Origin: Nitrospira sp.
GTDB lineage: Bacteria; Nitrospirota; Nitrospiria; Nitrospirales; Nitrospiraceae
DNA length: 64,000 nt
Assembly (NCBI GenBank): GCA_047150005.1
Contig: AP038806.1
Location: 2,752,001 to 2,816,000, forward strand
Reading direction: 5' to 3'
Both the position numbers and the translations under genes were made by a program. This document shows, one piece after another, positions 24,957 to 48,534 of this stretch. Under the pieces are notes generated by a model, which searched no databases, was not told the DNA's origin, and saw nothing but the letters and a program-made list of their open reading frames with translations. The number at the start of each line of letters is the position of its first letter. Within the stretch, counting starts at the first letter, position 1.

Positions 24957-25664
24957 TTACCCATAGTTGGGTTCGAGGGCCTCCCGAGGGCGTGCTGTTG
25001 TTGAGGAAGGGAACTCCACCGGGAGGGCGCCGAGACGCCCGCTTCGTTCTGACAGCGGGAAAATCATACAGGACAGCAGCCCCGTCCTGGTCGTCGTGTG
25101 TGTCTTCTGCATTAGGCGCTTCAAGTGTTCCTTCACCGTGTGTTCGCTCAGATTGATACGATTGGCGATCTCCTTGTTCGTAAATCCCAGCATCAGATAG
25201 ATGATCACCATCTGTTCACGCTCGGTCAGGTGGTATCGGTCTTGGATCCTGGTTTCCGCACAGGTCGCGGCTTGCCGGAGCGTTTCAAGCATAATGAGCA
25301 CGCGACTCTTCGTCTCGTCGCCCTGATCGGACATGCGCCATCCCCGGATGAGAAGCCGATCCTCGGATAGGTCGACGACTCGCTCGATGTACTGCGGCCT
25401 GCAATCCTCGGAATCGTCGCCCGTCCATGCGGGAGGGTTGAGTTCGCGTAGCACCGTGCCGAGCTCCTCGGGCATGAGGCAGGCGCCGAACTCTCTCGTG
25501 GCGGCGGGCTGTAATCGTTGAATGAACAACGGGACCTGGTCATTCATGAAAAGGAGCTGCCCAAAATTATTGAACAGCATCACGCCGATTCTGGCATGAC
25601 GCCAAGGACCAGCCGCATGTTTTCTCTGCTGATTCGGCGCCGGTGCCTCTCGTTCAAGGTTCAT
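24957..25664 (-). CDS. LuxR-family HTH regulator with PAS-like N-terminus (copy A)
   Basis: LTEREQ...GFTNKEIANRINLSEHTVKEHLKRLMQK; no receiver domain. Confidence 0.88.
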   Translation of the reverse strand: MNLEREAPAPNQQRKHAAGPWRHARIGVMLFNNFGQLLFMNDQVPLFIQRLQPAATREFGACLMPEELGTVLRELNPPAWTGDDSEDCRPQYIERVVDLSEDRLLIRGWRMSDQGDETKSRVLIMLETLRQAATCAETRIQDRYHLTEREQMVIIYLMLGFTNKEIANRINLSEHTVKEHLKRLMQKTHTTTRTGLLSCMIFPLSERSGRLGALPVEFPSSTTARPREALEPNYG

Positions 25665-25863
25665 CAAAGGGCTTTCCTGGTTATCCCCGTTCACGTGGTC
25701 GGATCGGCCTAGCTGCCTCATTATGCAATATGGAGACCCCCCTAGAGATCCCCCTAGGTCGCAGACTGGCCGATAGATCAGCCATCATCTGGAAATCACA
25801 CGTATAGTCATAGAGTTGTGTTCATTGGATCCCATCGTACTTTTCGGAGGAAATAATGTCTGC

Positions 25864-25909
25864 TGGATCCATTTAGTAGATACGAATGGACCCATTTAGT
25901 AGGTACGAA
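25864..25909. repeat. Tandem 23-bp direct repeat upstream of LuxR copy A
   Basis: tggatccatttagtagatacgaa / tggacccatttagtaggtacgaa (2 mismatches). Confidence 0.8.
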
Positions 25910-26011
25910 CAGATTCAGCATGAATTGCATTTGATCCAGGCGGCAAGGCTGTCAAGCTGGGTGGTAGGACGTAAGAGCGCGGGTAAATCGGGCTGTTGGA
26001 ACGGTCGGTAG

Positions 26012-26803
26012 CTAGACCGAAATGGTCTGGCCCTCTTGAAGAACCGTGAGCGAGGGGAGGCGCAACTGATTGAGTTCGCGCACGATCTCATCCGTGTACG
26101 CCGGCTTGAGATGATAGGCATAGACGGCAATATCCGCACGACTCAGCTTGCGAAGCTCCTCTGCAAGCAAGGCGGGCGTGAGGTGTTTGCTGATGCGCGC
26201 GAGATCATGCTTGGCATTCGGATAGGAACATTCGATGAACACCGCCTTGAGGTCCGGAATACGTTTGGCTACCGACCACAATTCCTCGGTCACGTACGTG
26301 TCTCCGCTGTACAACAGAGCGGCACTCCGATTCCGAATAATGAACCCCGCGGCCGGCACCGTGTGGTTCACGAGCACCGGACTGATCTCGAAGCCTTCCA
26401 CGGAATAACATTTTCCTGCCTCGATCGCCTGAGCCACAAAGATGGGGTTCTCCGCTGTCGGAATCCTGAAGAAATCGGGATAGACGGATGTGTTGAAGAT
26501 GTGCCGCTTCAAGCCTGAGATGACTTCTGGCAGGGCGGCAATCGTCACGGGTGAGGCGGCACCCTCACTGAGATTGTCGGCGAAGGTGGGCAGGCCCTTG
26601 ATGTGATCAAAATGCAAATGTGACAGGAGAACATGACGAATCTGCTTCTGCTCTTCGAACACAAGCTTTGCGGCGATTGTCCCTGCATCGAGGAGTACGG
26701 TGCCGTTCAGCAGGAAGCCGCAAGTGTTGCACTCTGTCCGGCCACGGCCACCCGTCTTCAGCAGACTGTCGGACCCGTGACAGCCAAGGATTCGTATATT
26801 CAC
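26012..26803 (-). CDS. 3',5'-cyclic nucleotide phosphodiesterase, class II-like (MBL fold)
   Basis: ILGCHG, LLDAGT, SHLHFDHIKG, HIFN..YPDF, VNHTVP, SGDT, IECSYPN, HLTP, YHLKP. Confidence 0.85.
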   Translation of the reverse strand: MNIRILGCHGSDSLLKTGGRGRTECNTCGFLLNGTVLLDAGTIAAKLVFEEQKQIRHVLLSHLHFDHIKGLPTFADNLSEGAASPVTIAALPEVISGLKRHIFNTSVYPDFFRIPTAENPIFVAQAIEAGKCYSVEGFEISPVLVNHTVPAAGFIIRNRSAALLYSGDTYVTEELWSVAKRIPDLKAVFIECSYPNAKHDLARISKHLTPALLAEELRKLSRADIAVYAYHLKPAYTDEIVRELNQLRLPSLTVLQEGQTISV

Positions 26804-26910
26804 CGCCTGACCTTCTGACTCATCGAGTGTTTAGCCGGTGCTCACCGGTGTTCGCCGCCGCCGGTGCCATTTGACCGTCACGATCCGGTGGCACCTGCGA
26901 TCATATCCGG

Positions 26911-27366
26911 TCACTCGCCCTGTGATTGTCGAAGCGCATAGAGGTTGGCTGCTGTACCCACTTTCTGAAGCAATATCTCGCGTGCCGCAGGCTTGCGTAT
27001 CCAGTCACAGACTCCATTCTGCACAATCCCTTCGAGGAACGTTGCATCTGCAGCGCCGCTGAACACGATGATCGGAATGGTCGAGTAGTGCGTCCGGAAA
27101 TGGGCGATGAGCTCTTTCCCGCTGGTCTTTGGCATTTCGAGGTCGACCAACAGGACGCATACCGTGTTGGCGTTCGCCTGGGTGTTCATGATGTCTATGG
27201 CGCTGTGAGAATCCGCTGCCATGAGCACACCATAGCCTTCCCGGCTAAGCACCAAACGGACGGTCTCCCGAATGAGGGGATCGTCATCGACCACTAGGAC
27301 TCTTCCTCGCACGGGGGGGCCATGCAATGCCGGTTTGGTCGGTTCCTCTTGATCAAACGGTGTCAT
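26911..27366 (-). CDS. Stand-alone response regulator receiver (paralog 1)
   Basis: VLVVDDD, VDLEMPK, PIIVFSG, IRKP. Confidence 0.88.
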   Translation of the reverse strand: MTPFDQEEPTKPALHGPPVRGRVLVVDDDPLIRETVRLVLSREGYGVLMAADSHSAIDIMNTQANANTVCVLLVDLEMPKTSGKELIAHFRTHYSTIPIIVFSGAADATFLEGIVQNGVCDWIRKPAAREILLQKVGTAANLYALRQSQGE

Positions 27367-27525
27367 GCCTCTCCTCTTCATCGATCTCTCTGCGGAAAAG
27401 GGTGTTACTCGCCGGATGGTTCATCGGTGCGGACGCACTGTACTCTCATGTTTGTCATAGATGGAACATCCCCAAATGAGGGGGGAACCGGTTCGCTGTC
27501 TCCCGAATGATCGTCCGGTCTCTCT

Positions 27526-27543
27526 TCCCCTCGTTTGAGGGGA
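27526..27543. promoter_or_regulatory. Palindromic operator copy between divergent receiver genes
   Basis: TCCCCTCGTTTGAGGGGA; a degenerate copy lies at about 27468-27486. Confidence 0.7.
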
Positions 27544-27667
27544 TACCTAGCTTGCGGGGATTGCGGCGACCTGGGAAATGACCTATACATCACCTTAAAA
27601 AGATACAAAATGAGCGGGACCTCCTTCTATGAGCGAATGGTCGGCGTTTGGGACCTCTCCATTGGCT

Positions 27668-28084
27668 ATGACTAAGCGCGAGGACAAGCAGATTGTTCAA
27701 GGTCGTATCCTGGTCGTCGATGATGATCCGCATGTGAGAAAGACGATCCACTTTGCCTTGCAACAAGGAGGGTATGATGTCTGCGAGGCCCAAAACGGCG
27801 AACAGGCCATTGATGCGATTCAGCAGATGTCTTCTGAACAGATGATCGACGTGATCCTTTGCGATCTCGAAATGCCGAAGATGGGCGGCAACAGCGTGAT
27901 TCCCTTCTTCAGGTCCCAATTCCCGACCATTCCCATCATCGTCATGACCGGCTTTCCTGATGTGCAAAATGCGACCGCGCTCTTTAAACAAGGAGTCGTG
28001 GATTACCTCATTAAGCCGGTGGAGCCGGGAACATTGTTAGAGGCGGTGAGGCGGGCGATGGGTGAGCAGGCCATGTTGGGATAG
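27668..28084 (+). CDS. Stand-alone response regulator receiver (paralog 2)
   Basis: ILVVDDD, CDLEMPKMGG, PIIVMTG, YLIKP. Confidence 0.9.
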   Translation: MTKREDKQIVQGRILVVDDDPHVRKTIHFALQQGGYDVCEAQNGEQAIDAIQQMSSEQMIDVILCDLEMPKMGGNSVIPFFRSQFPTIPIIVMTGFPDVQNATALFKQGVVDYLIKPVEPGTLLEAVRRAMGEQAMLG

Positions 28085-28137
28085 GCGACCCTCCGTCAGA
28101 TGAGGCCGGTCCAGAGGTGATGCGCTTCGCCGATGGC

Positions 28138-29475
28138 TCACCGCGGTGCGGCATGCACATGTCCCTGGGGAGCGAGTGGAAGCGCGATGTGGACCGTCGT
28201 TCCGCTCCCGATCTCGCTCTCGACCCACACCTTTCCTCCGTGGGCGTCAACGACATCTTTGACGATCTTCGTGCCGAGCCCCGTTCCTCCCACCTTCGTG
28301 CTCATCGCGCGTTTCGTGAATAGTCGATCGCGGATTTCGGGAGGCATCCCGCGGCCGGTGTCCATGACGGAGACGACAATGCCGCCGTCCTCCCGGCCGT
28401 CTCTTCCCCGAACGGTCACGGTGCCGCCGGCAGAGACTTCGGGGACGGCGTTGTTGACCAGATTGTAGAAGGCATTGTAGAGCCTTCGTTGATCCGCGAT
28501 GATCAGCGGCAGCAGTTCAAGATTCTCGGTTCGTAACGTCACCTTCTTCTCTTGTGCCAGGACGCCCAAAGACTTGAATACGGTCTTGATCACTTCCTGA
28601 ATCTCGCAAGCCGAAAACTCGAGCGGGGAACTGAGTCCCTTGACCGCATCGGCAATCTCTCGTACGCGATCCTGAATCCGGTGTGCGTCATCCTTCAGCA
28701 TTTGGATGACCTCATTGCACAAGTCGCGGCTCGCCTCGGCCCGTTCGGTGTCGATTTCAGGAATGCGTGAGAGGAGATCATTGATTTCGGCCTGCAGGAT
28801 GCCGGCCCCGCAGACGACCGGCATGAGCAGGTTCTTGATGTCATGGCTCACGTCCCCCATCATCTGCGCCACTTCCGCGAGTTTGGCCGCTTCGAAGAGC
28901 CACGTATGTTCAATCGCTGCGGCTGACAGCGCGGAAATGACGATCAGAATGGCCAGATCGTCTCGGTTCAAGCACGTGCCGCCCCGCTTGTTCATGACCT
29001 GAATGACGCCGATCGGATCGCCTTCCCACCGTTTGAGAGGAATCGTAATCATGTCGTGCGTGACCGAGCCGGTCGCTTGGTCGATTTTGGGGAAATGGCG
29101 ATCGTCCGTCTGAGCATCCGGCACAATGTCCGGCAGTCCGGTCTTAAAGACCGTTCCGGCGATGCCTTTGTCCCAGGGGATGGTTGTTCCATGCGGCACC
29201 GGCTTCTCGCCGACCGAATGATAAAAGACCAACTCTTGTTTCTCGGGGTCAGCCAGCAGAATGGACCCGTTCTCTGCGTTCACCACATCCAGCGCGATGG
29301 TGAGTGCGTGCTCGAGCAAATCCTGTAACTTGATCTTTTTGGAAAAGACCTCCGCCATCCGTCGGACGGCGCCGAACTCGATCTCACGACGGCCGAGGAG
29401 CCGCTGAAGGTCCTGTTCACTCGGCAACTGCTGCGGCTGGATGGGTGAAGGATTCGCGACATTGTGTTGCGTCAT
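28138..29475 (-). CDS. Cytoplasmic GAF-domain sensor histidine kinase (copy A)
   Basis: GAF (IDQATG...MITIPL...VMNK); H-box SHDIKN; NLVNNA, DTGRGM, GGTGLG. Confidence 0.92.
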   Translation of the reverse strand: MTQHNVANPSPIQPQQLPSEQDLQRLLGRREIEFGAVRRMAEVFSKKIKLQDLLEHALTIALDVVNAENGSILLADPEKQELVFYHSVGEKPVPHGTTIPWDKGIAGTVFKTGLPDIVPDAQTDDRHFPKIDQATGSVTHDMITIPLKRWEGDPIGVIQVMNKRGGTCLNRDDLAILIVISALSAAAIEHTWLFEAAKLAEVAQMMGDVSHDIKNLLMPVVCGAGILQAEINDLLSRIPEIDTERAEASRDLCNEVIQMLKDDAHRIQDRVREIADAVKGLSSPLEFSACEIQEVIKTVFKSLGVLAQEKKVTLRTENLELLPLIIADQRRLYNAFYNLVNNAVPEVSAGGTVTVRGRDGREDGGIVVSVMDTGRGMPPEIRDRLFTKRAMSTKVGGTGLGTKIVKDVVDAHGGKVWVESEIGSGTTVHIALPLAPQGHVHAAPR

Positions 29476-29568
29476 GGTGATCTTCTCCTTGTGGTGCAAA
29501 CCCTTGGCTCATCGACTCCCTGCCCCGCCGTGTCGTGCATGCGACGACCCGCCGATCCTGAGTGGACA

Positions 29569-31080
29569 TTACACCTTGTCCCAATCCGGATGTTCCTTTC
29601 TCGCGCAGGTCGTACAAATGGTATGGGAGAACTGCGCTTCCGAATGCCCTTGAAATAACTGTTCGAGCTCATGCCATTCCCCCTGACTGTCTCGAATCTT
29701 CTTGCAGGACGCGCAAATCGGCACTAACCCGCGGATGGGATTGCTCCCGGATGCGGATTGCAATTCCGCGACGAGCCTCGCCGTTTCCTCCGCGAGCTGT
29801 TTGCGCTCGACGAAATGTCCCACCTTGATGCCGATGTCCGCAAAGGTATGCAACAGCCCGTTATCGGGGGGCCGAATTTCACGGGAGAAGAATTCAATCA
29901 CTCCCAGAACACCCTCGGCGCCTTTGATCGGGAACCCGAATGCGGCGTGCAAGCCGGCCGTTTGCGCCAGCGCCAGTCGTGGAAAATTCTCGTCCTTCTC
30001 CAAGTTCATGATCCAATTCGGTTCACCGCTGGCAAAGACGCGGCCCGGCAATCCGATTCCGGATTCGAAGATCGCCGTGCGACTTGCTTGGAGGAATTCC
30101 TCGATGTGCGGCGGAGCCGAATCCTGCCACACCGTCGCGCAGCGCAATGTCCCGGTTCGTTTGGTCGGCACCCAGATGAGACCGGCCTCCCAGTCCGTGA
30201 GATGGCCGATGGCCTGCAGGAGTTGCGCTCCCGCTTGTTCGATCGTATCCGCTTCCATGAGGACCTGACTGATGGCCAATTGCACAGCCTGCCGGGTTTC
30301 CATCCGTTTCCGGTCCGTGATATCCCGCAGGAATGCGCTGAAGAACCGGCGGCCTTTCGTTTGCCACGACGCGAGTGAGAGCTCCAACGGAAATTCTCTG
30401 TTGGTTTTGCGGAGCCCGTGCAACTCAATCGTCGTTCCAAGTATTCGAGGTTCGCCCGTTTCGCACAGCCGCCGCAGACCCCGTTCATGGGCATCCCGGT
30501 ACCGTTTAGGCATGATCGTCGTCAGTGGAAGACCGAGGGCTTCTTCCTCTCGGTATCCGAACGTTTTCGTGGCGCCGGCATTCCAGTAGACGATGTTCCC
30601 TTCCGCATCAGCCAGGATCAGCGCATCGGGAGTCGATTGCACGACTGAGGTGAGCCGGGCCTCGATATCCGTGAGGCTCTCCTGGGCGTGTTTGTACTTG
30701 ACCTCTTGGCGCGCAATGTACAGGCACGCGGTCCCAAACAACACGAGCAGGATCAGATTGAAAACAAACTGTGATGCCACAACGAACGGAGACGGATCAT
30801 CGAGACCGGAGAAGGCAACGGGATGGGCCCACTGTTCGAGCGCCGTAAGACCGAGAACGAGCCCCGTGACCACCAGCACGGCCCGGCCCCCTCCCCACCA
30901 GAGCGCCGAAATGATCGCGACAGGATAGAGCAACACTCCCACGTGAAGTCGGGGGGTCAGGAAGAGATCGATGACGGCGATGCCTGCAAGCAGAAATCCG
31001 GTGAGCAGCCTGGGGAACAGAGGCCGCGGCATCACGGCCGTCTTGACCAAGAGCTGTTTCAGGTTCGGCCAAGGGTCCAT
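29569..31080 (-). CDS. Membrane PAS+GAF sensor with C-terminal Cys/His tail and no kinase domain
   Basis: About 4 TM segments; PAS (WNAGA..FGY...DITDRK); GAF (GLPGRV...NFPR); tail PICASCKKIRD...SHTICTTC. Confidence 0.85.
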   Translation of the reverse strand: MDPWPNLKQLLVKTAVMPRPLFPRLLTGFLLAGIAVIDLFLTPRLHVGVLLYPVAIISALWWGGGRAVLVVTGLVLGLTALEQWAHPVAFSGLDDPSPFVVASQFVFNLILLVLFGTACLYIARQEVKYKHAQESLTDIEARLTSVVQSTPDALILADAEGNIVYWNAGATKTFGYREEEALGLPLTTIMPKRYRDAHERGLRRLCETGEPRILGTTIELHGLRKTNREFPLELSLASWQTKGRRFFSAFLRDITDRKRMETRQAVQLAISQVLMEADTIEQAGAQLLQAIGHLTDWEAGLIWVPTKRTGTLRCATVWQDSAPPHIEEFLQASRTAIFESGIGLPGRVFASGEPNWIMNLEKDENFPRLALAQTAGLHAAFGFPIKGAEGVLGVIEFFSREIRPPDNGLLHTFADIGIKVGHFVERKQLAEETARLVAELQSASGSNPIRGLVPICASCKKIRDSQGEWHELEQLFQGHSEAQFSHTICTTCARKEHPDWDKV

Positions 31081-31259
31081 ACCTGACCTTGCATCCCGGC
31101 ATGATGTCGGGAGGGTCGGGACGAATGAGTCACCTGCATCCCGCGCAGATCACATGAGAGCGCGAAATCGGCGCGGATATTCTGTCTCGCAGTCGACCCG
31201 TCCAATAGGGGTGACATTATCACCGGGTGGGCTGTTCATGTAAACCCTCACAAACAAGG

Positions 31260-31281
31260 TATCCCCTCATTTGAGGGGATA
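31260..31281. promoter_or_regulatory. Palindromic operator (perfect arms)
   Basis: TATCCCCTCA-TT-TGAGGGGATA between divergent genes. Confidence 0.75.
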
Positions 31282-31371
31282 GTGACATGTCTCAATCGTG
31301 TGGTACTGACTTTCGCGTTCCGGGCAGAGGGCGAAGACCGGCTGAGAAACCTGAACAAGGAGGAAGGCATC

Positions 31372-31776
31372 ATGAGTGTCGGCAGAGTGCTGATTGTGGA
31401 CGACGAAGCCGATATCAGAAAGTCGGTGCGTCTGATCTTGTCGAAGGCAGGGTACGACGTCATCGAAGCTGAAGACGGCGCAGCAGGTGTCAATACCGTG
31501 AAGTCCGGCGACAATCCTCTCTCGCTCAACGCGATCATTTGTGATCTGAACATGCCCAAGATGGGCGGCATGGAAGCGATTCCCTATTTCCGCTCGCAGT
31601 TTCCTTCCTGCCCCGTGATTGTGTTGACCGGAGCCGGCACGGTCGATCGGGCCACCACGCTCTTTAAACAGGGCGTCATCGAGTTTCTGAGCAAGCCCAT
31701 CGATCGAGACAAATTATTGTCGGCAGTCAAGAAGGCGGTCGACATGGGAGGATGGAAAGATTCCTTCTCCGTGTGA
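31372..31776 (+). CDS. Stand-alone response regulator receiver (paralog 3)
   Basis: VLIVDDE, CDLNMPKMGG, PVIVLTG, FLSKP; AGGAGG RBS. Confidence 0.92.
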   Translation: MSVGRVLIVDDEADIRKSVRLILSKAGYDVIEAEDGAAGVNTVKSGDNPLSLNAIICDLNMPKMGGMEAIPYFRSQFPSCPVIVLTGAGTVDRATTLFKQGVIEFLSKPIDRDKLLSAVKKAVDMGGWKDSFSV

Positions 31777-31838
31777 TGGTGAGAGCGGATGCCGACACGA
31801 CTGCGATATACCGCTGGGCATGACTCGCGTTTCTCCGC

Positions 31839-32975
31839 TCACTTCGCTAGATAGACACTGAGATCTTTGTTCATGTCGTACATCTTCCGCGACACGGCGG
31901 CAAGACAGATGGCGTTGTTCTTCCCCTCAAGCTGGTCGCAGACGCGTACCGCGCTGTGCGGGAAAAACTTCGCAATCCGCTCCATGGCGCCATCGATACA
32001 GACGAACTCCTCCAGCGTGCCCAGACCCAGACAGACGGAGCGGACGCTGATCCTTCCGCCTATGAGCATCAGCATGTGAGCGTTGCCGAGCCCGTGAAAG
32101 CAGCCGCGCCGCACCGGGTCCGTGAGGGAAGAGCAAAGCGCCCTGAGTTCTTCCGTCGTCTTACCCGCCTGGTAGTGCCTTCGGACTACATGCACCATCT
32201 TGTAGCGGGCGCATGCAGCCGGATAAATGTATTGATCGCAGGGATAAAGGAGGCTTTTCGTCGTGGCGTCCTGTGGGTCCCGCTCCGTCACGTATTCCAT
32301 GTAGGCGCCGGTCGCGCAGTAGTATGCCATGGCCTGATTGTCGTTCCCCTGGCAGGCCTTGAGGGCTTCCGGAATCTCGTATCCCGCCAGGTTCATGAGC
32401 GCGTGGCCGACGCCGTGCGCGCAGTCGCCGGGCGAATAAGACGCGGTCATCACGAGATTGCCCTGACAGAGGTCCTTGATCGCCGGTCCGAGGATGGCCG
32501 AATCCATGTGATGGGGAGATGCTCTGCCGATGGTCGTGAAGGCTTCCATCAGGACGCCGTGCATGCATCCCGAGTTACACCGATCCGCGCAGACGCGTAG
32601 GCCGATGCCAACGTCGCGGACGCGCGCGAAGATGACTTTCCCGAGGTCATGCGCCTCGGAATGGCACTTCGGCCAGAGGCTCTTGATGCTGTCCAATGCT
32701 CCGTTGGCGCCGATTACCGGCAGGAAGATCTCGACGAGTTGCCTGTTATTCTTCCCGACCCGAGAGAGCGCCCGGATGAATTCCGCCCGCTGCTTCTGGG
32801 TGCCGCCTGGGTCAACGAAGAGCGGGTGCTGGAACGCCGCCGTCTCCTCCTCTGCGCCACCCATTTCTTCAGCAACAGGAGGCTCCATTGCCAGGCCCTG
32901 GGATGAAGAACACAGAAGGAGGAGGACCGAAAGCGAACGTCGCATACATGAGAACATAGGTTGCGGTCCGCTCAT
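31839..32975 (-). CDS. Exported Cys/His-rich repeat protein of unknown function
   Basis: Signal peptide; CHSEAHDLG, CMHGV, CAHGVGH, CATGAYME, CFHGLG, CIDGAME; ATGA overlap with upstream kinase. Confidence 0.75.
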   Translation of the reverse strand: MSGPQPMFSCMRRSLSVLLLLCSSSQGLAMEPPVAEEMGGAEEETAAFQHPLFVDPGGTQKQRAEFIRALSRVGKNNRQLVEIFLPVIGANGALDSIKSLWPKCHSEAHDLGKVIFARVRDVGIGLRVCADRCNSGCMHGVLMEAFTTIGRASPHHMDSAILGPAIKDLCQGNLVMTASYSPGDCAHGVGHALMNLAGYEIPEALKACQGNDNQAMAYYCATGAYMEYVTERDPQDATTKSLLYPCDQYIYPAACARYKMVHVVRRHYQAGKTTEELRALCSSLTDPVRRGCFHGLGNAHMLMLIGGRISVRSVCLGLGTLEEFVCIDGAMERIAKFFPHSAVRVCDQLEGKNNAICLAAVSRKMYDMNKDLSVYLAK

Positions 32976-34303: not shown

Positions 34304-34392
34304 AGACAGCTCCTTATGCGTGCCTCGAACCCATCTTCGTCGAGTGGCGCATAGGAGTGACGCATTGTAAGGACATGCAGCCTCAAAAGCAG

Positions 34393-34567
34393 TCCCCTCA
34401 TTCGTGGGGAGCCTCAAGTGTAGGGATTTGAGGCTTTGACGAAGCTTCCACTCGAGGTTTCCCGGTCAAGACCACCCGCTCGACCGCCTATCCCCCGTCG
34501 GCAGCAAGCGGCGGCGCACCAGGAACAGATTCGCGAGTGCGGATACTCCCCTCATTCGTGGGGAGCC
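34393..34567. promoter_or_regulatory. Two identical operator copies in the divergent promoter region
   Basis: TCCCCTCATTCGTGGGGAGCC at 34393-34413 and 34547-34567. Confidence 0.75.
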
Positions 34568-34659
34568 CCGTCTGTGGGGATTGTCTGGGAATAAGATAAG
34601 GGGCATAAAACGGCGCGGGAAGCTGCTTTTGCGTATTGTGGATCAATAAGGAGGTCGTG

Positions 34660-36033: not shown

Positions 36034-36091
36034 AGGCTAAGTTGGTATTGCCGAATGCTCTTGCCTGGTGAAACCGTCTGGCCGCCATCTC

Positions 36092-36126
36092 AACCGGACT
36101 CTTCGCTTTCGGCGAAGAGTCCGGTT
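36092..36126 (+). terminator. Perfect 15-bp-stem hairpin (terminator or mRNA-stabilising element)
   Basis: aaccggactcttcgc-tttcg-gcgaagagtccggtt; only a weak U tract. Confidence 0.6.
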
Positions 36127-36212
36127 CGATCTCAAGGCGAGTGTTTTGCGTTCCGTTGGGAAGGAACGGCAGATTCTTGGACTGCTCCGCTCTTTCATGA
36201 ACGGGAGGAGAT

Positions 36213-41635: not shown

Positions 41636-41650
41636 CCGGAGGATCGTCAC

Positions 41651-44014
41651 ATGACACGATATCCATGTCGCCCTGAATCGGTGGCCTCTCGCGGTTCCGA
41701 TTGGCTACGAACCGGCATCGTGCTGGGTTTCCTCGTCGCAGCCTGCATGACCTGGCATTTTTCCGTCGGAAGCCAACGGGGATACTCCCAATCCATGGAG
41801 GCCGTCCCGCCGGTCACCGGTTTGTCACTGTTCCAGCAAGGGGACGAGGCGTTTCGACGCGGTGCGTTCGAACAAGCGGTCCAGGTGTGGCAGCAATCTG
41901 CACACATGGCTCACGAGGCCGGTAATCTGCGCGAGGAATGCGATGCTCGTGTGGCACTCGCGCAGAGCTACATGGCGCTTGGATTTCACACTCGTGCTGC
42001 CCAACAACTCGAGCTGGCTGTTGCCATTGCCCGGTCGGCTGGTGATCCATCCCGTCAGGCAGCTGCCCTCGATCTGCTCGGGCAAACCTATCTGACCGCC
42101 GGACGACCCGAGCCGGCCTTGGAAACGCTCGAGGATGCCCGGCGGCTGGCCGTAGAAGCGCAAGACCAGGTACGCATGGCCACGGTTCTTCACTCTCTCG
42201 GGACCACACAAGCGGCACTGAATCAGAACGATGAGGCGGCGGCCTCATTTAAAGAGGCTCGTCGTTTGGCACAGGTTGCCCATCTGGATACACTCGTTGC
42301 TACTTCAACAATCAACCTGGCCAAGATGGCGCTCGGAGCAAACCAATGGCAAGAAGCCGATGGTCTGCTCAACGAGGCGTTGGCGCAGAGCCGATCGCTT
42401 CCTGACTCACATGACAAGGCGTACGGTCATATTTCGATCGGCCTCGGGTTTGCCGCCCTCCATGGCCATCTCCCGCCAAACGGGGACCGTCGCGCGATAG
42501 CTGCCGAAGTGCTCGAAGAGGCCGGTGAGATTGCTCAAACGCTTGGTGATGCCCGTGCCGCCTCATACGCTCTCGGGTATCGTGGCCATCTCTATGAAGA
42601 GGAACGCCGTTACGAGGAGACATTGCTCCTCAGCCGGCTTGCCATTGGCTTTGCCCAACAGGTGCATGCACCGGAGTCACTCTATCAATGGGAATGGCAA
42701 ACAGGCCGAGCGTTGAAGGCGCAAAACCACCTCGATCACGCGATTCCGGCCTACCAACGAGCGGCAGATCTCGTGCAGACATTACGGCCGGAAATGGTGG
42801 CCGGTTCAGCTTCGTTCAGGGAATCCAGCGGCCGACTGTTCTTCGAATTGGCCGATCTCCTGCTGCAGCGGGCGAGTGGCACTTCGGGGAGAGAAGAAGC
42901 GCAACCGTATTTGATGAAGGCGCGGGAAGCCGTGGAGCTCTTTAAGTCGGCGGAGCTGCGGGATTACTTCCGAGACGAGTGCGTGGACGCGTACCAAACC
43001 CGTTCGACTAAACTTGAAGATGTTTCACATCGAGCGGCCATTCTGTATCCCATCATTCTTCCGGATCGTACCGAGTTGCTGGTGAGTCTGCCCGATGGCA
43101 TGCATCGACTGACCGTCCCGGTCAAACAAGAGGACATCACGGCAGAGGCACGCGCCTTTCGGACGATGTTGCAGAAGGAAACGACGCGTGAATATCTCCG
43201 CCGTGCACAACGGCTCTATGATTGGCTCTTGAGGCCACTTGAGACGACGTTCGCGAAATTTGATCTCGATACCTTGGTGATCGTTCCAGATGGTCCGCTT
43301 CGAATGATCCCGTTTGCCGCGCTGCACGATGGAAAGCAATTTCTGATCGCCAAGTACGCCGTGGCGACGACGCCAGGGCTGAATCTGACGGATCCCAAGC
43401 CCCTGGCGCGAGACCGCATAGAAGTGCTCTCAGCCGGGCTTACTGAAGGCGTGCAAGGATTTCCGCCCCTCCCGAACACCGCGGAAGAACTGAAGGCCAT
43501 CGGAGCGATGTATAAGACGCATCGTCTGCTCAATGAAGAATTTCGCGTGCCGCAACTCGAGCGGGAGATGAAAGAAACTCCGTTCACGATCGTGCATATC
43601 GCGTCGCACGGCAAATTCGAACGCGACGTAAAGAAGAGCTTTCTGCTGACGTACGATGATAAGCTGACGATGGACCGTCTGAATCAGGTCGTAGGCTATT
43701 TCCGGTTCCGGGACCAGCCGCTCGAACTGTTGAGCCTCAGCGCCTGCCAGACCGCGGCGGGGGACGACCGCGCGGCGCTCGGGTTGGCGGGAATCGCGAT
43801 CAAAGCCGGCGCGCGAAGCGCTCTCGCCACTCTGTGGTTCGTGAACGACGAGGCCTCGTCGGCGTTGGTGGTGGAGTTCTATCGTCATTTGAAGAATCCG
43901 GCCAACTCGAAAGCGATGGCGCTTCGACAGGCTCAGTTGAAGTTGATGGAGAATCCGGATTTCCAGCATCCGATCTTTTGGTCGCCGTTTCTCATGTTGA
44001 ACAACTGGCTGTAG
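41651..44014 (+). CDS. TPR-CHAT caspase-like (clan CD) protease with N-terminal export signal
   Basis: TPR-like helical repeats; IVPDGPLRMIPFAAL; HIASHG and LSACQT dyad motifs; ATLWFVND; HPIFWSPF..NNW. Confidence 0.93.
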   Translation: MTRYPCRPESVASRGSDWLRTGIVLGFLVAACMTWHFSVGSQRGYSQSMEAVPPVTGLSLFQQGDEAFRRGAFEQAVQVWQQSAHMAHEAGNLREECDARVALAQSYMALGFHTRAAQQLELAVAIARSAGDPSRQAAALDLLGQTYLTAGRPEPALETLEDARRLAVEAQDQVRMATVLHSLGTTQAALNQNDEAAASFKEARRLAQVAHLDTLVATSTINLAKMALGANQWQEADGLLNEALAQSRSLPDSHDKAYGHISIGLGFAALHGHLPPNGDRRAIAAEVLEEAGEIAQTLGDARAASYALGYRGHLYEEERRYEETLLLSRLAIGFAQQVHAPESLYQWEWQTGRALKAQNHLDHAIPAYQRAADLVQTLRPEMVAGSASFRESSGRLFFELADLLLQRASGTSGREEAQPYLMKAREAVELFKSAELRDYFRDECVDAYQTRSTKLEDVSHRAAILYPIILPDRTELLVSLPDGMHRLTVPVKQEDITAEARAFRTMLQKETTREYLRRAQRLYDWLLRPLETTFAKFDLDTLVIVPDGPLRMIPFAALHDGKQFLIAKYAVATTPGLNLTDPKPLARDRIEVLSAGLTEGVQGFPPLPNTAEELKAIGAMYKTHRLLNEEFRVPQLEREMKETPFTIVHIASHGKFERDVKKSFLLTYDDKLTMDRLNQVVGYFRFRDQPLELLSLSACQTAAGDDRAALGLAGIAIKAGARSALATLWFVNDEASSALVVEFYRHLKNPANSKAMALRQAQLKLMENPDFQHPIFWSPFLMLNNWL

Positions 44015-44076
44015 CCGGAATTGAACACGTCTCGCAAGAAAGACAAAGGTCCCCTTTCCCCGGTGTGCTTCCTCGC

Positions 44077-46020
44077 ATGCGAAGCGCCCTGAAAGTCTTT
44101 CAGTCACCGCTCGTCGCGAGCGTCGTGATCGGCTTTCTCTGTGCTCTTGTCATTCTCGGCGTGCGCAGCACCGGCCAGCTCCAACAGCTGGAGCTCTCTC
44201 TGTACGACTGGCTGCTGCGGTCGCGGCCGATGCCGGCCGTATCCGATTCGCGGATCACGTTCATCACGATTTCCGAGGAGGACATCCGCCAACAGGGCCG
44301 ATGGCCTATCACGGACGAGACCCTGGCGCAAGCTCTCCGCCTCCTGCTTGCGCACAAGCCTCGCGCCATCGGTATAGACCTCTACCGGGACATCGACGTC
44401 CCGCCAGGGCATGAGGACCTTACGGCGCTTCTCACGCAACAACCCCGGATCGTCATGGTGACTCAGGTCGGAGGCGGGACCGTGATCCGCATTCCTCCTC
44501 CTCCGGCGTTGGAGGGGAGCGAGCAAGTGGGATTCAACGACATCCTCATCGATTCCGATGGGCTCATCCGTCGGGCCTTGCTGTTCCAGGATGATGGAGA
44601 TCAAGTCGCCTATTCATTCGGTCTCAGGCTCGCCCTGCTCTACTTGGCGGGCGACGGGATTGTTCCGCAGCCGGATCCGTCCAATCCTGACCTGATTCGA
44701 TTGGGCCCGACCACGCTCAGGCCGTTTGCTTCTTCAGACGGGGGGTATGTGAATGCGGATGCGGGCGGCTACCAGATTGTGCTGGACTTCGGCGGCGCTG
44801 CGGCGCCGATGAGGACGTTTTCCCTGAGTGATCTGCTGGCCGGCCTTGTGGAACCTCGGCAGATTACCGATCGTATCGTGTTGATGGGCGTGACGGCCGA
44901 AAGCGTGCCGGATCTCTTTCATATTCCGGTTCAATACGGCTCTCACGCTGGAGACCTGTTCCCCGGAGTCTTTCTGCACGGGATCGTCATCGAGCAATTG
45001 CTGGCCGCAGCCAAGGACGGCCGCAAACCGATCCACGTCCTGAGCGAGACTGCGGAAATTGCTTGGACCCTGCTGTGGGGAATGCTCGGTGGCGCACTGG
45101 GTGTCTTCGCTCGTTCTCCGTGGCGCTTCTCCCTGATCACAGTCGGAGGGCTGCTTCTGCTGACCGTGATGGTGATTTGGCTATTCTGGTCCGGATGGTG
45201 GGTGCCCGAAGCTCCGGCCGCGATTACATGGTTCGTCACGGCCTCAGTCGTGGTCGCCTCGACGCTGGGTCGAGAACGAAAAGAACGGGCGCTCTTGATG
45301 CAGTTGTTCTCCCGGCATGTCTCGCGGGAGGTGGCCCAGGCCATCTGGCACCAGCGAGAGCAGTTCCTCGAGGACGGTCGCCCGCGGCCGCAGGAACTCA
45401 CAGCGACGGTGTTGTTCTTGGACTTCAAAGGCTACACAGCGGCTTCGGAAAAGATGACCCCGCAGGCCTTGATGGCCTGGGTCAATGCCTACCTGGATGC
45501 CATGACTCAGGTCGTCATGAGGCACGACGGAGTCATCGATGACTATGCGGGCGACTCGATCAAAGCGAATTTCGGGGTCCCGTTGAAGCGAGCGTCGAAT
45601 TCGGAAGTCGCCACGGACGCGATCAACGCGGTGACCTGTGCCTTGGCGATGGAGCGGGAGATGCACAGGATGAACGAACGACATGAGGGGAACGGGCTTC
45701 CCACCGTCGGCATGCGCATCGGGATTCACACCGGTCCGGTGCTGGCCGGATGCGTCGGAAGCGCCGAGCGCATGAAGTATACGACGGTGGGAGATACGGT
45801 CAATGCGGCGGCGAGGCTGGAAAGCTTGGATCGGGAGGTCGTGGCGGAAACACCGGGCCGGCGGCCCTGTCGGATCTTGATCAGCGGGGCGACGGCCCAA
45901 TTACTCGGCGAGCGTTTTCACCTCGAGCGCCTCGGTGAAGTGAGTGTCAAAGGCAAAGCCCAGCCCATTGTCACGTATCGAGTCACCAGCCACATCGGAG
46001 AGCAAGTCGGAGCCAGATAA
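44077..46020 (+). CDS. CHASE2-domain class III adenylate/guanylate cyclase
   Basis: CHASE2 (WPITD, IGIDLYRD, VGFND, DSDGLIRR, PGVFLH); 3 TM segments; TVLFLDFKGYT, GD, RIGIHTG, YTTVGDTVNAAARLE, VKGK. Confidence 0.93.
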   Translation: MRSALKVFQSPLVASVVIGFLCALVILGVRSTGQLQQLELSLYDWLLRSRPMPAVSDSRITFITISEEDIRQQGRWPITDETLAQALRLLLAHKPRAIGIDLYRDIDVPPGHEDLTALLTQQPRIVMVTQVGGGTVIRIPPPPALEGSEQVGFNDILIDSDGLIRRALLFQDDGDQVAYSFGLRLALLYLAGDGIVPQPDPSNPDLIRLGPTTLRPFASSDGGYVNADAGGYQIVLDFGGAAAPMRTFSLSDLLAGLVEPRQITDRIVLMGVTAESVPDLFHIPVQYGSHAGDLFPGVFLHGIVIEQLLAAAKDGRKPIHVLSETAEIAWTLLWGMLGGALGVFARSPWRFSLITVGGLLLLTVMVIWLFWSGWWVPEAPAAITWFVTASVVVASTLGRERKERALLMQLFSRHVSREVAQAIWHQREQFLEDGRPRPQELTATVLFLDFKGYTAASEKMTPQALMAWVNAYLDAMTQVVMRHDGVIDDYAGDSIKANFGVPLKRASNSEVATDAINAVTCALAMEREMHRMNERHEGNGLPTVGMRIGIHTGPVLAGCVGSAERMKYTTVGDTVNAAARLESLDREVVAETPGRRPCRILISGATAQLLGERFHLERLGEVSVKGKAQPIVTYRVTSHIGEQVGAR

Positions 46021-46036
46021 CGTTCGCGCCCATCCC

Positions 46037-46807
46037 TCAATTCGACTGAGCCATCAGCGCGTTCGATGCGACATCAGCCAGTCCCACCTGCTCAAGCAGC
46101 GAGGCGCGTTGCTGACGCCACTCATTGTTGGCCGGATTGGATTGAATGCGATCCGTGAGCGCCATAACCGTGTCATACCAAATTCCCGCCTCTGCATAGC
46201 GCGCTGGAGCTTCCGCGTCGGTGATGACAGTCGTCATTGGCGGCTGCAGTTTCTCCCGATCGATACGTTCGATCGCTCCCTTTGCCACGACATTGGCGGA
46301 ACGTTCCTCGGCGTCCACAATCAATGACACCGACCATTGGTACCGTTCTCCCGGCGACAGCTTCACGTTATAATCCGCCAGCTTGATCTGCTGAAGGCCG
46401 GCCTGCGCCGGAGGCGGAAGCTTCGCGTCCACGACCGGAGCCTCGGCATTGTCACCGATCAAGGTGAATTCAAACGAGAACGCCTTGTCCTGTTTGGTTG
46501 GTGTGAACCAGTAGAGAACCGGTTGTTCCAACAGTGTCCAGCCTACATGCTCGGGAGCCAACAGGCTGATGACGGGCACGCTCTTGTTCAAACCACGAGT
46601 CCCTCCGCCTCTGCGTGTCGTCGTCGCAGGAGCACCCTTGTGGGGTGGTTGATATTTGATAGCCTGCTTAGGCTGGGGCTGAGAATCCTTCGCCTGGGCC
46701 ACAGGCGGCACTGTCGTGCCAGCTTGTTCTTCCGAGATTGCCACAAGGGGAAGGCCGAAAAGCAGACTCGCGGCCAGACCACACACAGTCACCGTTTGTC
46801 GTTTCAT
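46037..46807 (-). CDS. DUF928 family periplasmic protein
   Basis: Signal peptide; GAP...RGGGTRG, PVLYW, YQWSVSL, YAEAGIWYD, LLEQVGL. Confidence 0.85.
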   Translation of the reverse strand: MKRQTVTVCGLAASLLFGLPLVAISEEQAGTTVPPVAQAKDSQPQPKQAIKYQPPHKGAPATTTRRGGGTRGLNKSVPVISLLAPEHVGWTLLEQPVLYWFTPTKQDKAFSFEFTLIGDNAEAPVVDAKLPPPAQAGLQQIKLADYNVKLSPGERYQWSVSLIVDAEERSANVVAKGAIERIDREKLQPPMTTVITDAEAPARYAEAGIWYDTVMALTDRIQSNPANNEWRQQRASLLEQVGLADVASNALMAQSN

Positions 46808-47259
46808 AGATAGGCCCTCCTGTCATCTGTCAGGTGCGTCATCTTGACCGGTCCTCGCCCGTGCCAAATACCGAATACAAGGCAAGGGACGGGCCAACCC
46901 ACCTCATAAAAATACGTAAAGGTCACCAAGCTGAAACTCTATGACGGTACAGCCACTTTTTGATGACCTTGATCTCCACGATCCCCACCTGTCGGACTTG
47001 GTTCATTCAGGTTTGTTCTTCATGCGAAAAAACGCATTCAGTCTGGATCGAAAGTGATTCGAGATACGCAGATTGGCTCACGTAGATATCGAGAGTCGGA
47101 GCCTGAAATGGGCTTCGCAGCTGTTCCGTGACTCGCATTGTCGTGAGTGGTGATGCAGGTCTTTTTCGGGGGAGTTATCGCTTGTGCGGCGAGGAGTTTC
47201 CCCTCCGACGACCCGGTCAGCTCGGAAGATTTTATATGCCCAATGATACCCCCTGTGAA

Positions 47260-47277
47260 TCCCCTCACTTGAGGGGA
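47260..47277. promoter_or_regulatory. Palindromic operator copy
   Basis: TCCCCTCACTTGAGGGGA between divergent DUF928 and lipoprotein genes. Confidence 0.72.
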
Positions 47278-47336
47278 TAGCTAACTGTGGGGGTTGTGGT
47301 CTGACCGTCCCTGCCGTACAGAGGACGAGGGAAGAG

Positions 47337-47792
47337 TTGAATGTTTCCGTGATGATCGGCCCTGACATGATGCTGCATCTGAGCAAGAGCATCCGTGTGC
47401 TGGCTGCCGCCAGTCTCCTGACGGCCTGCGGGGAACCGGTGTTTGAGAACGCCGGCAGTCCGAACAGCCTGGCGCTGGACCGCGAGGCCTGTGTCATGGA
47501 GATTGATCAAAGTCCCGAGGCATTCAGGTATCGTCAAAACCCTGCGGCCCATCCTGACTATCCGGTCGAGGCGGTAGAGGACATCAATACGTGCATCGAG
47601 AAGAAGGGTTGGAGGCTGGTGCGTTCCAGATCGGAACAAGAGCAGGTGCGGGATGCGGTAGCTTCCGAAATGAGTCGCTCTCCTCATCCCGTGCCCTTGT
47701 CGGATCCGAAAGGCATAGAGGCCTTGAAGCGAGCGATCGAGGACAAGCTTACGCGTGCCGGATCAGTGGAGAGTACGTCGAAGAAGGAGTAG
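47337..47792 (+). CDS. Hypothetical lipoprotein
   Basis: Lipobox LTAC; DREAC...CIEKKGW; true start may be 47367. Confidence 0.7.
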   Translation: MNVSVMIGPDMMLHLSKSIRVLAAASLLTACGEPVFENAGSPNSLALDREACVMEIDQSPEAFRYRQNPAAHPDYPVEAVEDINTCIEKKGWRLVRSRSEQEQVRDAVASEMSRSPHPVPLSDPKGIEALKRAIEDKLTRAGSVESTSKKE

Positions 47793-47895
47793 TACTATAA
47801 GCAAAGCTGAGAGGTTGTTTCCGCCATTCTGCTCCTTGTGCCAGGCTGGTCCCGTCCGGTTGAGGTCGCGCCATGCGGGGATGGTGTCGAAGGGG

Positions 47896-48534
47896 CTAAG
47901 ATCCCGATCGGAGGCCCCCGTCGGGCTGGTCGGCCGGCGGCATTTGTCCTACCCCGTCCGGTGTCGAGAAGATCATGCGGGCGAGCAGACCCGTCCGGGT
48001 CGTCGTATGGGTTTTGTGCATGATGCGTTTGAGGTGTTCCTTCACGGTATATTCGCTGAGATTGATCCGGCTTGCGATTTCTTTGTTGGTAAACCCCAGC
48101 ATCAGGTAGATAATCACTATTTGCTCGCGCTCGGTCAGGTGATACCGCTCCTGAACGATGGAATTCAGGCCTTCGGCCTGCTGCGGAAATGGTTCGATGA
48201 TGATGAGGAAGCGGCTGTTGGACTGAAACGGCTCTTCCGGGACGCATAAGCCCCGAATGAGGAGGCGGTGCGTCGAGTTCAGGTGGACCCGTTCAACTTG
48301 AATGGACTCACAGTCCTTCGGGTGGGAACATTTGGCCAGCTGACCGGCTAACTCCCGCACGACCGTATGAACTTCCGGTGGGATGAGGTCGCTTCCACAT
48401 TCCTGAGTTGCGGGAGAATGAATATTCCTCAGGAGCGTCTGCGCCTCCTCATTCATGAACAAGAGTTGCTCGGAACTGGTGAAAAGAATGACGCCTGTAG
48501 CAATGTCTCTGGCAGGACGGCCTGGTGATATCAC
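47896..48534 (-). CDS. LuxR-family HTH regulator with PAS-like N-terminus (copy B)
   Basis: LTEREQ...GFTNKEIASRINLSEYTVKEHLKRIMHK; HTH nearly identical to copy A. Confidence 0.88.
   Translation of the reverse strand: MISPGRPARDIATGVILFTSSEQLLFMNEEAQTLLRNIHSPATQECGSDLIPPEVHTVVRELAGQLAKCSHPKDCESIQVERVHLNSTHRLLIRGLCVPEEPFQSNSRFLIIIEPFPQQAEGLNSIVQERYHLTEREQIVIIYLMLGFTNKEIASRINLSEYTVKEHLKRIMHKTHTTTRTGLLARMIFSTPDGVGQMPPADQPDGGLRSGS

Follow-up and report, generated by a model that had tools for sequence, protein, structure and literature searches.

In Sinorhizobium meliloti, the NsrA-CyaD1/CyaD2/CyaK-Clr system comprises CHASE2 cyclases that are activated from outside via an outer-membrane beta-barrel protein (PMC13001267). 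The S. meliloti cyaD1 locus (cyaD1, clr, smc02178, spdA) brings together a cyclase, a reader, a target gene and a predicted phosphodiesterase, and the Clr reader binds a palindrome upstream of its target (PMC4222275). A block with a similar combination of genes was found in Nitrospira sp. at positions 24957-48534 of a window of 64,000 nucleotides, the whole stretch of DNA that was analysed (contig AP038806.1, positions 2,752,001 to 2,816,000 of the forward strand); in it a CHASE2 cyclase, candidate readers and a candidate phosphodiesterase (PDE) stand beside genes for two-partner secretion (TpsA and TpsB), a caspase-like CHAT protease and a DUF928 protein. The protease and the exoprotein may be compared with the LapD/LapG-CdrA/CdrB system of Pseudomonas, in which the target of a periplasmic cysteine protease is an adhesin exported by two-partner secretion, as is proposed here (PMC4694147), and with FhaB, a TpsA protein whose conserved C-terminal part is under regulated processing by periplasmic proteases (PMC8263021, PMC4542190). 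Cya2 of Synechocystis (2w01) has the same CHASE2-transmembrane-cyclase architecture as the cyclase of the block; it is a CHASE2-regulated guanylate cyclase that the substitution E488K turns into an adenylate cyclase (PMC5995499).

On balance, we lean towards reading the block as a self-contained accessory signalling island of three layers: an envelope input, a cyclic nucleotide (cNMP) module and transcription under PAS-LuxR regulators. This reading is built on the gene content of the block, its character as a unit, the conserved linkage of its genes, the architecture of its operators and promoters and the catalytic residues of its enzymes. The envelope input would be an operon of a secreted 465-aa (amino acid) protein, TpsA, TpsB, TPR-CHAT and the CHASE2 cyclase, with the genes for DUF928 and a lipoprotein alongside. 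CHAT would act on DUF928 in the periplasm, with the Arg/Gly motif of DUF928 at its catalytic His and Cys, and may also act on a conserved element at the C-terminus of TpsA; the periplasmic CHASE2 domain would read the resulting proteolytic state, and the cyclase would make a 3′,5′-cyclic purine nucleotide, which could be cGMP as readily as cAMP. Two GAF histidine kinases would bind this nucleotide and phosphorylate single-domain receivers, a class-II-type phosphodiesterase would degrade it, and the PAS-LuxR regulators would bind a palindrome plus a third half-site abutting the -35 hexamer and activate the promoters of both modules. The output of the island is probably surface adhesion or aggregation.

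Gene content, island limits and linkage

Coordinates below are positions in the window, and gene calls were made from the listing of open reading frames (ORFs) together with Pfam and NCBIfam scans. Every gene that the preliminary description had named in 24957-48534 was recovered there with Pfam. The two LuxR genes that bracket the block, LuxR-A (24957-25721, minus strand; PAS-like N-terminal domain and LuxR/GerE helix-turn-helix (HTH), PF00196, E 3.9e-13) and LuxR-B (47896-48534, minus strand; PAS-like domain and LuxR HTH of the GerE type), are paralogous as had been claimed, with 51% identity over 192 aa. Between them lie a PDE of the metallo-beta-lactamase (MBL) fold and class II cNMP-PDE type, the candidate eraser (26012-26803, minus strand), and upstream of it the single-domain receiver REC1 (26911-27381, minus strand; PF00072, E 6.2e-21); the single-domain receivers REC2 (27629-28084, plus strand; E 2.2e-27) and REC3 (31282-31776, plus strand, likely start ATG 31372; E 2.9e-26); and the candidate readers GAF-HK1 (28138-29499, minus strand) and GAF-HK2 (32972-34417, minus strand, likely start ATG 34306), two GAF histidine kinases that are 49% identical. 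On the plus strand follow the TpsA exoprotein of 1205 aa (36213-39830), the outer-membrane transporter TpsB (39827-41635, overlapping the tpsA stop by 4 bases), a predicted exported TPR-CHAT caspase-like protease (41651-44014) and a receptor protein that combines CHASE2 with a class III nucleotide cyclase domain, the candidate writer (44077-46020, in an ORF open from 43834); the periplasmic DUF928 protein (46037-46807) is encoded on the minus strand. The NCBIfam scan assigned no specific equivalog to any block gene.

The block is one unit, as is seen from a clean 26-kb indel relative to a genome of the same genus (G293) and from a conserved palindrome restricted to the locus, described in the next section. 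G293 matches window segments 5346-8034 and 50297-64000 collinearly, with 80-85% identity, and its 90-base match to window 24053-24142 precedes the right-flank match by only ~100 bases. The two flanks thus nearly meet in G293, which lacks ~26 kb of the host sequence (window ~24143-50297, the approximate limits of the accessory island). Nor were orthologues of the cyclase, PDE, GAF kinases or LuxR-B found in the rest of the G293 genome. At the left edge of the island is a MazF/PemK-like toxin gene (24433-24750) and at the right edge an IS3-family element (orfA/orfB, 48958-50144). To the left of the island, from window position 20594 onward, are genes for a C39-peptidase ABC exporter and an HlyD-type protein (type I secretion).

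The neighbourhoods of cyclase-orthologue loci were searched with 17 block proteins in a phylum sample of 300 other genomes (G-numbers, G000 being the host), and all genomes were scanned with an alignment of GAF-HK (L-numbered loci). A full-length cyclase orthologue is found in 13 of the 300 genomes. In 10 of 14 loci, the host window counted, the CHAT gene immediately precedes that of the cyclase on one strand, and DUF928 is within 5 kb in the same 10. The preliminary description would have been called into question had the PDE/GAF-HK/REC half not been syntenic with the Tps-CHAT-CHASE2 half in other genomes. Both halves are kept in two genomes of another genus (G177, G204) as PDE, REC, GAF-HK, REC, GAF-HK, (465-aa), TpsA, TpsB, CHAT, cyclase, DUF928, lipoprotein and LuxR-B, and other orders occur in four more: PDE with Tps, CHAT, cyclase and DUF928 in G044; REC, REC, two TpsA, TpsB, CHAT, cyclase, DUF928, REC and GAF-HK (55%) in G249; in G186, of another family, a PDE adjoining the cyclase at the end of a 60-kb stretch that otherwise carries CHAT, DUF928, TpsB, several TpsA, GAF-HK (54%) and REC; and in G255, of a third family, TpsA, CHAT, DUF928, REC, REC and GAF-HK (54%). 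With synteny recurring in G177, G204 and these others, the two halves are linked, though not universally: four genomes (G190, G273, G217, G262) have the envelope set and the cyclase only, and G271 has the envelope set with LuxR-B and a PDE/GAF-HK/GAF-HK module 185 kb away on the same contig.

The 72 closest GAF-HK loci, some of which are the same places as those of G177, G204, G271 and G186, belong to Nitrospira, Nitrospiraceae, Nitrospirales or Nitrospirota, except for one from Nitrospinota. The cyanobacterial frame in which the locus had been placed thus gives way to one of Nitrospira and Nitrospirales relatives. Among the 72 loci, a PDE is present in 31, a receiver of at least 45% identity in 38, a CHASE2 cyclase of at least 40% identity in 12 and Tps genes in 14; a cyclase, Tps, CHAT or DUF928 gene is carried by 24. 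When only the 29 loci of at least 15 kb are considered, 17 have a PDE and 16 a cyclase or envelope gene. REC genes adjoin GAF-HK in most related loci. In a second arrangement (type B), PDE, GAF-HK and CHASE2 cyclase genes share one strand; they are adjacent in L124, L133 and L137, have gaps of ~1 kb in L141, and show a duplicated form in L121, L125, L129, L130, L131 and L132. In L130, L137, L145 and L141, the cyclase is followed at ~5-7 kb by a TpsA or TpsB gene. DUF928 has matches in 46 of 301 genomes, the host counted.

In four of the type-B loci (L121, L125, L130, L131), a second CHASE2-like cyclase (25-30%) is encoded between two GAF kinases, ~2.5-3 kb upstream of the CHASE2 cyclase. Its catalytic motif is degenerate (LIVDLKGN instead of ..D.Y.GD), so that it may be a pseudo-cyclase partner.

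A putative operator and the LuxR proteins

An 18-bp palindrome, TCCCCTCAnnTGAGGGGA, occurs in five copies in the window with at most 3 mismatches (27526, 31262, 34393, 34547 and 47260); shuffled windows have a mean of 0.32 copies, and none of 100 shuffles reached five. All five sites are intergenic between divergent genes, in agreement with the shared palindrome that had been reported in the divergent promoters of the block. The host genome (4,071,157 bases) contains six matches with at most 2 mismatches, five of them inside the block. A third half-site, TGnGGGGA, is found 8-9 bases after each palindrome; as read by eye, it abuts a TTGnnn hexamer, which is followed by 17 bases and a TAnAnn or GATAAT hexamer.

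Judged from orientation, the sites face four targets. Putative operator P1 (27526-27543, plus strand), whose third half-site abuts the -35-like TTGCGG, is directed towards REC2. P2 (31262-31279, minus strand), with its half-site and TTTACA-17-GATAAT, is directed towards the genes for a PAS-GAF protein and GAF-HK1. The tandem sites P3a (34393-34410, plus strand) and P3b (34547-34564, plus strand; half-site and TTGTCT-17-CATAAA, 96 bases upstream of ATG 34660) are directed towards the 465-aa-TpsA-TpsB-CHAT-cyclase operon, and P4 (47260-47277, plus strand) towards the lipoprotein-like gene. Consensus promoter and terminator scans of the block were at chance level (4 versus 4.7, 11 versus 10.4; 5 versus 3.8, 15 versus 7.6), and the hexamers of P2 are the sole 10/12 promoter match used from them. 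At window 27468-27486, ~45 bases upstream of P1 towards REC1, the palindrome is found once more in a shortened, degenerate form, ATCCCCAAATGAGGGGGG.

A site with at most 1 mismatch is present in 22 of the 72 GAF-HK loci, and in 21 of these 22 a kinase shares at least 67% identity with GAF-HK1 or GAF-HK2; two loci (L093, L136) have kinases of this identity class, yet no palindrome. When all 39 sites are aligned, one layout recurs in three promoter classes (those of GAF-HK1, the Tps operon and the lipoprotein gene), with diverging flanks. The class of P3b is kept in seven loci (L087, L089, L091, L092, L149, L151, L152), and that of P4 is also found in G177 and G204. In the whole genome of G177 there are three 1-mismatch sites, all in the locus, and two 2-mismatch sites elsewhere; G204 has two sites in the locus and four elsewhere, where a reversed-pattern control gives 3; and G271 has only two sites, both in its PDE/GAF-HK module, which is detached from the LuxR-B orthologue by 185 kb. 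G044 and G249 have no LuxR-B orthologue, and neither of their loci contains a palindrome.

In the detached PDE/GAF-HK module of G271 (L089:4747-8521), a promoter of the Tps class faces ORFs of 181 and 632 aa, the latter with a sub-threshold match to Peptidase_C14 (caspase; 20.8 bits, cut-off 21.4). The sole palindrome of the host genome outside the block, TCTCCTCACTTGAGGGAA, has 2 mismatches and lies at G000:C1:3390176, ~24 kb from a second Tps locus.

LuxR-A and LuxR-B were expected to be the end point of a phosphorelay that passes from the kinases to receivers and LuxR. No PF00072 receiver domain was found by Pfam in either protein, which sets them apart from LuxR/NarL response regulators, and they model as PAS plus HTH. 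The LuxR-B model has a PAS-like domain and an HTH with moderate confidence (pLDDT 72.5), and its top Foldseek matches are VqmA (7dwm, 6ugl) and EL222 (3p7n), with E about 1e-6. Like LuxR-B, VqmA and EL222 join a PAS or LOV domain to an HTH of the LuxR type, but sequence identity is only 14-18%. The PAS-like domain of LuxR-B has three conserved Cys. As modelled, LuxR-A and LuxR-B are PAS-HTH one-component regulators.

LuxR-type dimers generally bind palindromes of about 18 bp. From this habit and from co-occurrence, LuxR-A and LuxR-B are candidates for the proteins that bind the palindrome. LuxR-B orthologues of at least 59% identity are found in only three of the 300 genomes (G204, G177, G271), and each adjoins the DUF928 gene of a cyclase locus. 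Its 408 metagenome relatives are annotated only as members of the CsgD/LuxR family; those with a source name are nearly all from Nitrospira or Nitrospirota, and one is from the cyanobacterium Petrachloros mirabilis. The host has a third PAS-LuxR paralogue (G000:C1:411959-412504; 35% identity with LuxR-B), which belongs to the core genes of the family, with matches in 44 of 49 genomes. In L097, L104 and L108, more distant GAF-HK/REC pairs (55-63%) adjoin a PAS-LuxR-like gene (35-45%) without this palindrome; these loci may have a diverged version of the operator.

Envelope proteins and the proposed cyclic nucleotide module

The CHAT domain of the protease (PF12770, 196 bits, E 1.2e-57) has its predicted catalytic His and Cys: H649, H653 and C699 are invariant in 18 sequences. 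The N-terminus has a hydrophobic export or anchor segment. TpsA has a TPS domain (PF05860, 123.8 bits against a cut-off of 33.5, E 1.5e-35; TIGR01901, 63.7 bits) and the adjacent TpsB scores above the cut-offs for POTRA_2 (PF08479) and ShlB (PF03865). The last ~100 residues of TpsA contain an element, C.AR..SSFV..GRD.LP..PGG.L.SP, that is common to paralogues and orthologues across loci. The DUF928 protein (PF06051, E 2.2e-36) consists, in an alignment of 24 sequences, of a signal peptide, an Arg/Gly motif (Y.PP..GAP..R.GGGTRG, with Y52, P60, R65 and R71 invariant), an Ig-like sandwich and a helical end. Its model has a pLDDT of 81.7, the stretch of the Arg/Gly motif itself being of low confidence; the best fold match is the C-terminal domain of MtxA (E 2.7e-5), followed by weaker matches to FN3 domains and pilus chaperones. 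When the Arg/Gly motif was sought in the block proteins, it was present only in DUF928; TpsA does not share it as a cleavage motif.

The preliminary description proposed DUF928 as substrate or inhibitor of CHAT, and a model of the complex between CHAT 46-787 and DUF928 40-256 speaks for this pairing, with a score of 0.69 in 3 of 3 runs, compared with 0.15 for the best of 3 controls. Of 157 solved complexes, 116 attain the mark set for this score, as do 2 of 215 mismatched pairs; with separately supplied alignments, as used here for each protein, these counts apply only approximately. At least 94% of contacts are common to the runs, and the partner pLDDT is at least 79. In the modelled interface, DUF928 residues 60-64 and 68-77, in the Arg/Gly motif, face CHAT residues 652-653, 700, 703 and 729-736 around the catalytic His and Cys, and the DUF928 sandwich faces CHAT residues 505-517. 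The model thus supports binding of DUF928 by CHAT and would fit either a substrate or a pseudosubstrate inhibitor. We know of no solved complex of the CHAT-DUF928 kind, so the score seems unlikely to come from a memorised structure.

The host genome has a second Tps-CHAT-DUF928 locus (G000:C1 ~3,414,000-3,456,100; L154, L155), with a TpsB 49% and a CHAT 50% identical to those of the block, two tandem DUF928 genes, at least five TpsA paralogues and no CHASE2 gene. Beside it are genes for a REC-PASx4 protein, an ABC_sub_bind protein, a HAMP-GAF-HisKA kinase and a sigma-54 response regulator.

The cyclase matches CHASE2 (PF05226, 202 bits, E 1.2e-59), which is placed between membrane segments, and after it a class III cyclase domain (PF00211, 83.8 bits, E 1.5e-23). 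The two metal-binding Asp, the Asn and the Arg are present, and the motifs FLDFKGY, YAGD and GDTVNAAARLES stand in the alignments. The closest solved cyclase domains are those of Cya2 (2w01, E 7e-28), a Cya2 chimera (6fht), CyaB (3r5g) and CyaC (1wc0). At the position that specifies the purine, encoded within window 45300-46020, the block cyclase has Asp (VIDDYAGD), whereas Lys stands there in CyaB (3r5g) and in the E488K chimera (6fht), and Glu in Cya2; Lys, the residue expected there of an adenylate cyclase, is thus replaced by Asp. At the second specificity position it has Thr, aligned with Gly of Cya2. The Asp-Thr pair is found in all Nitrospirales orthologues examined, and a Lys-Thr pair in the more distant orthologues of G106, G086, G217, G190 and G262. 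For the predicted product, which the preliminary description gave as cNMP, a sequence with Asp where adenylate cyclases have Lys makes cGMP a serious candidate, as likely as cAMP.

The annotation of the candidate eraser as a phosphodiesterase is supported by its best match in the Protein Data Bank (PDB), the yeast class II PDE1 (4ojv, E 2.5e-10), with HxHxDH and ECS...HL(T/S)P stretches aligned, and, indirectly, by the placing of its relatives: at least 44 of the 150 PDE places listed are within 1 kb of a class III cyclase match, a lower bound because only 150 cyclase matches were listed. PDE matches are found in 154 of 301 genomes, mostly in single copy. The protein scores 55.1 bits with PF02112 (cut-off 23.7) and the same with Lactamase_B_2, and its motif HLHFDH has Phe for the Leu of the class II motif HXHLDH (PMC4222275).

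Both GAF kinases have GAF_2 and HATPase_c matches (the latter 91-97 bits) and an invariant H(D)xKNLL box (SHDIKNLL in the alignment of GAF-HK1), with REC genes alongside, and may be called histidine kinases; Pfam HisKA matched neither. The best PDB match for the GAF domain of GAF-HK2 is 4mcw, and the next 12 are cNMP-binding GAF domains (PDE2A/5/6/10, CyaB2; E 1e-8 to 3e-5). A Pfam scan of 21 block ORFs gave no Crp or cNMP-binding domain.

Four block genes had not been named in the preliminary description. The membrane PAS-GAF protein encoded upstream of GAF-HK1 on the same strand (29569-31080, minus strand; transmembrane segment, PAS and GAF matches, Cys-rich C-terminal motif) has a 64% orthologue in L085, where the REC1-PDE pair is found again. 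After its GAF domain is a tail without Pfam match, CxxCKKIRD...W...H..CxxC (window 29569-29720); many sensor proteins of other phyla carry similar Cys-rich tails. A 378-aa Cys-rich secreted protein (31839-32975, minus strand; signal-peptide-like N-terminus), whose gene overlaps the GAF-HK2 stop by 4 bases, has no Pfam or NCBIfam match, is absent from the related loci searched and appears in the protein atlas only in unnamed clusters. The 465-aa secreted protein (34636-36033, plus strand, likely start 34660; signal peptide by eye) is encoded by the first gene of the Tps operon and has no Pfam match; orthologues of 29-33% identity occupy the same position in G177, L088, L126, L151 and L152. The 151-aa lipoprotein-like ORF (47337-47792, plus strand), with a lipobox-like LLTAC in its sequence, has orthologues of 52-55% in the same place in G177 and G204.

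Alternative readings and comparison with known systems

Of the circuit drawn in the preliminary description, the unit and the linkage of the halves stand, and the phosphodiesterase annotation and the modelled CHAT-DUF928 pair are supported; the LuxR proteins as end point of a phosphorelay and the cyanobacterial frame fall away, and the nucleotide may be cGMP or cAMP. Contact sensing by TpsA and a relay from CHAT to CHASE2 would be proposed steps of that circuit. Several observations also weigh against the three-layered island as we read it. Its weakest links are the effect of CHAT, DUF928 or TpsA on CHASE2 and the route from kinases and receivers to the output, the latter because an output domain is absent from the receivers and a receiver domain from the LuxR proteins; the link from kinase to transcription is therefore missing. 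No palindrome lies upstream of LuxR-A or LuxR-B in the window, and none with up to 3 mismatches lies in the Tps-CHAT-cyclase block of G271, which counters a uniform regulon. The GAF domains keep the Asn, the Lys and the acidic pair of an NKFDE-type motif, but not its Phe. Invariant residues are not clearly enriched in the modelled interface (by hand count, about 9 of 29 in CHAT and 5 of 30 in DUF928). GAF-HK orthologues stand away from any DUF928 gene in G283, G159, G059 and G271, and seven of the 29 long GAF-HK loci have no PDE, cyclase or envelope gene. In S. meliloti, the "PDE" encoded in the cyclase locus acts on 2′,3′-cNMP and not on 3′,5′-cAMP (PMC4222275). It is doubtful that the fully specified sequence of events applies, in which CHAT cleaves the Arg/Gly motif of DUF928 or a C-terminal TpsA plug in TpsB, CHASE2 takes this as input and the resulting cGMP acts on the GAF kinases, the whole with its own PAS-LuxR feedback and eraser.

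A credible alternative, though we consider it less probable, is that the block holds two co-regulated systems with no signalling from protease to cyclase: TpsA, TpsB, CHAT and DUF928 would be an adhesin secretion and maturation set in which CHAT trims or releases TpsA and DUF928 is a chaperone or inhibitor, the CHASE2 domain of a separate cNMP pathway would sense an unrelated periplasmic ligand, and both would serve aggregation or biofilm formation under one LuxR regulator. It stays credible because Tps-CHAT-DUF928 without CHASE2 is the commoner type of locus, found in most genomes of the family and in the second locus of the host. The cyclase orthologue stands alone in G086 and G106, without CHAT or DUF928; the PDE-cyclase pair occurs phylum-wide, mostly without Tps genes; the C-terminal element of TpsA is kept in both types of locus; and periplasmic processing of a TpsA protein is known, that of CdrA by LapG (PMC4694147). 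Against such a separation, the placing of CHAT directly upstream of the cyclase on one strand in 10 of 14 loci extends over several families, and the paralogous host locus is also beside a membrane sensor kinase, which fits a general coupling of the protease set to sensors.

It is quite unlikely that the block is a conflict or cell-death system on a mobile island, with CHAT as death or defence effector, TpsA as contact-dependent toxin filament and cNMP as alarm. The accessory island is flanked by the MazF-like toxin gene and the IS3 element, and caspase-like proteases and CHASE2 have been discussed in bacterial conflict systems (PMC8195603), but an N-terminal export or anchor segment and the company of periplasmic partners place CHAT outside the cytoplasm, TpsA has no Pfam match outside its TPS domain and a C-terminus that is conserved, unlike polymorphic toxin tips, and no immunity-like small ORF was noted after tpsA, whose stop is overlapped by tpsB. 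Chance neighbourhood, with the palindrome a repeat element of no regulatory function, agrees with the chance-level promoter and terminator scans and is disfavoured to the point of being highly improbable: the linkage recurs in several gene orders and families, and the palindrome keeps a fixed distance to the third half-site and the -35/-10-like hexamers while the flanks diverge, and in four genomes it hardly occurs outside the locus.

On the signalling-island reading, the block would be a compact, rebuildable set of a protease, its modelled substrate or inhibitor, a receptor cyclase, probable readers and eraser, and an operator, with which the input of CHASE2 and the role of DUF928, both little known, could be tested. 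It may represent a bacterial cGMP pathway with histidine-kinase readers. Nitrospira are nitrite-oxidising bacteria that live in flocs and biofilms, and the island would possibly couple their surface filaments to gene expression.

A CHASE2-DUF928 gene neighbourhood has been published for Nostoc, in the only paper naming DUF928 that the literature search returned. Literature on the combination of DUF928, CHASE2 and CHAT, on CHAT domains or CHASE2 with two-partner secretion, or on Nitrospira with CHASE2 was not found among the papers listed in a search that covered journals other than those by subscription. The closest described system is the CHASE2 cyclase pathway of S. meliloti, and for a protease acting on an adhesin the closest are LapG/CdrA and FhaB; all of these are without CHAT, DUF928 and GAF-kinase readers. 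The reader of S. meliloti is the Crp-type Clr, whereas the block has candidate GAF kinases with single-domain receivers, and PAS-LuxR factors. SpdA, which acts on 2′,3′-cNMP, is an enzyme of class III, and the PDE of the block belongs to the class II MBL type. The outer-membrane protein NsrA is no TpsB, and TpsA, CHAT and DUF928 are not described for the S. meliloti pathway. A nucleotide second messenger is part of the Pseudomonas circuit too, which runs from c-di-GMP through LapD to LapG, inside-out, whereas the direction proposed here is outside-in to the cyclase; LapG is transglutaminase-like and not a CHAT protease, and the Pseudomonas system has no DUF928. FhaB is processed by DegP, CtpA and SphB1, in a system without receptor cyclase, whereas the block encodes a dedicated caspase-like enzyme in the operon itself, and the C-terminal element of its TpsA is ~100 aa long compared with the large prodomain of FhaB. 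Cya2 and the block cyclase both have an acidic residue at the E488 position, Glu in the former and Asp in the latter. What is new here is the downstream circuit, the operator and the modelled CHAT-DUF928 interface, and both the input module and the readers are new for receptor-cyclase loci.

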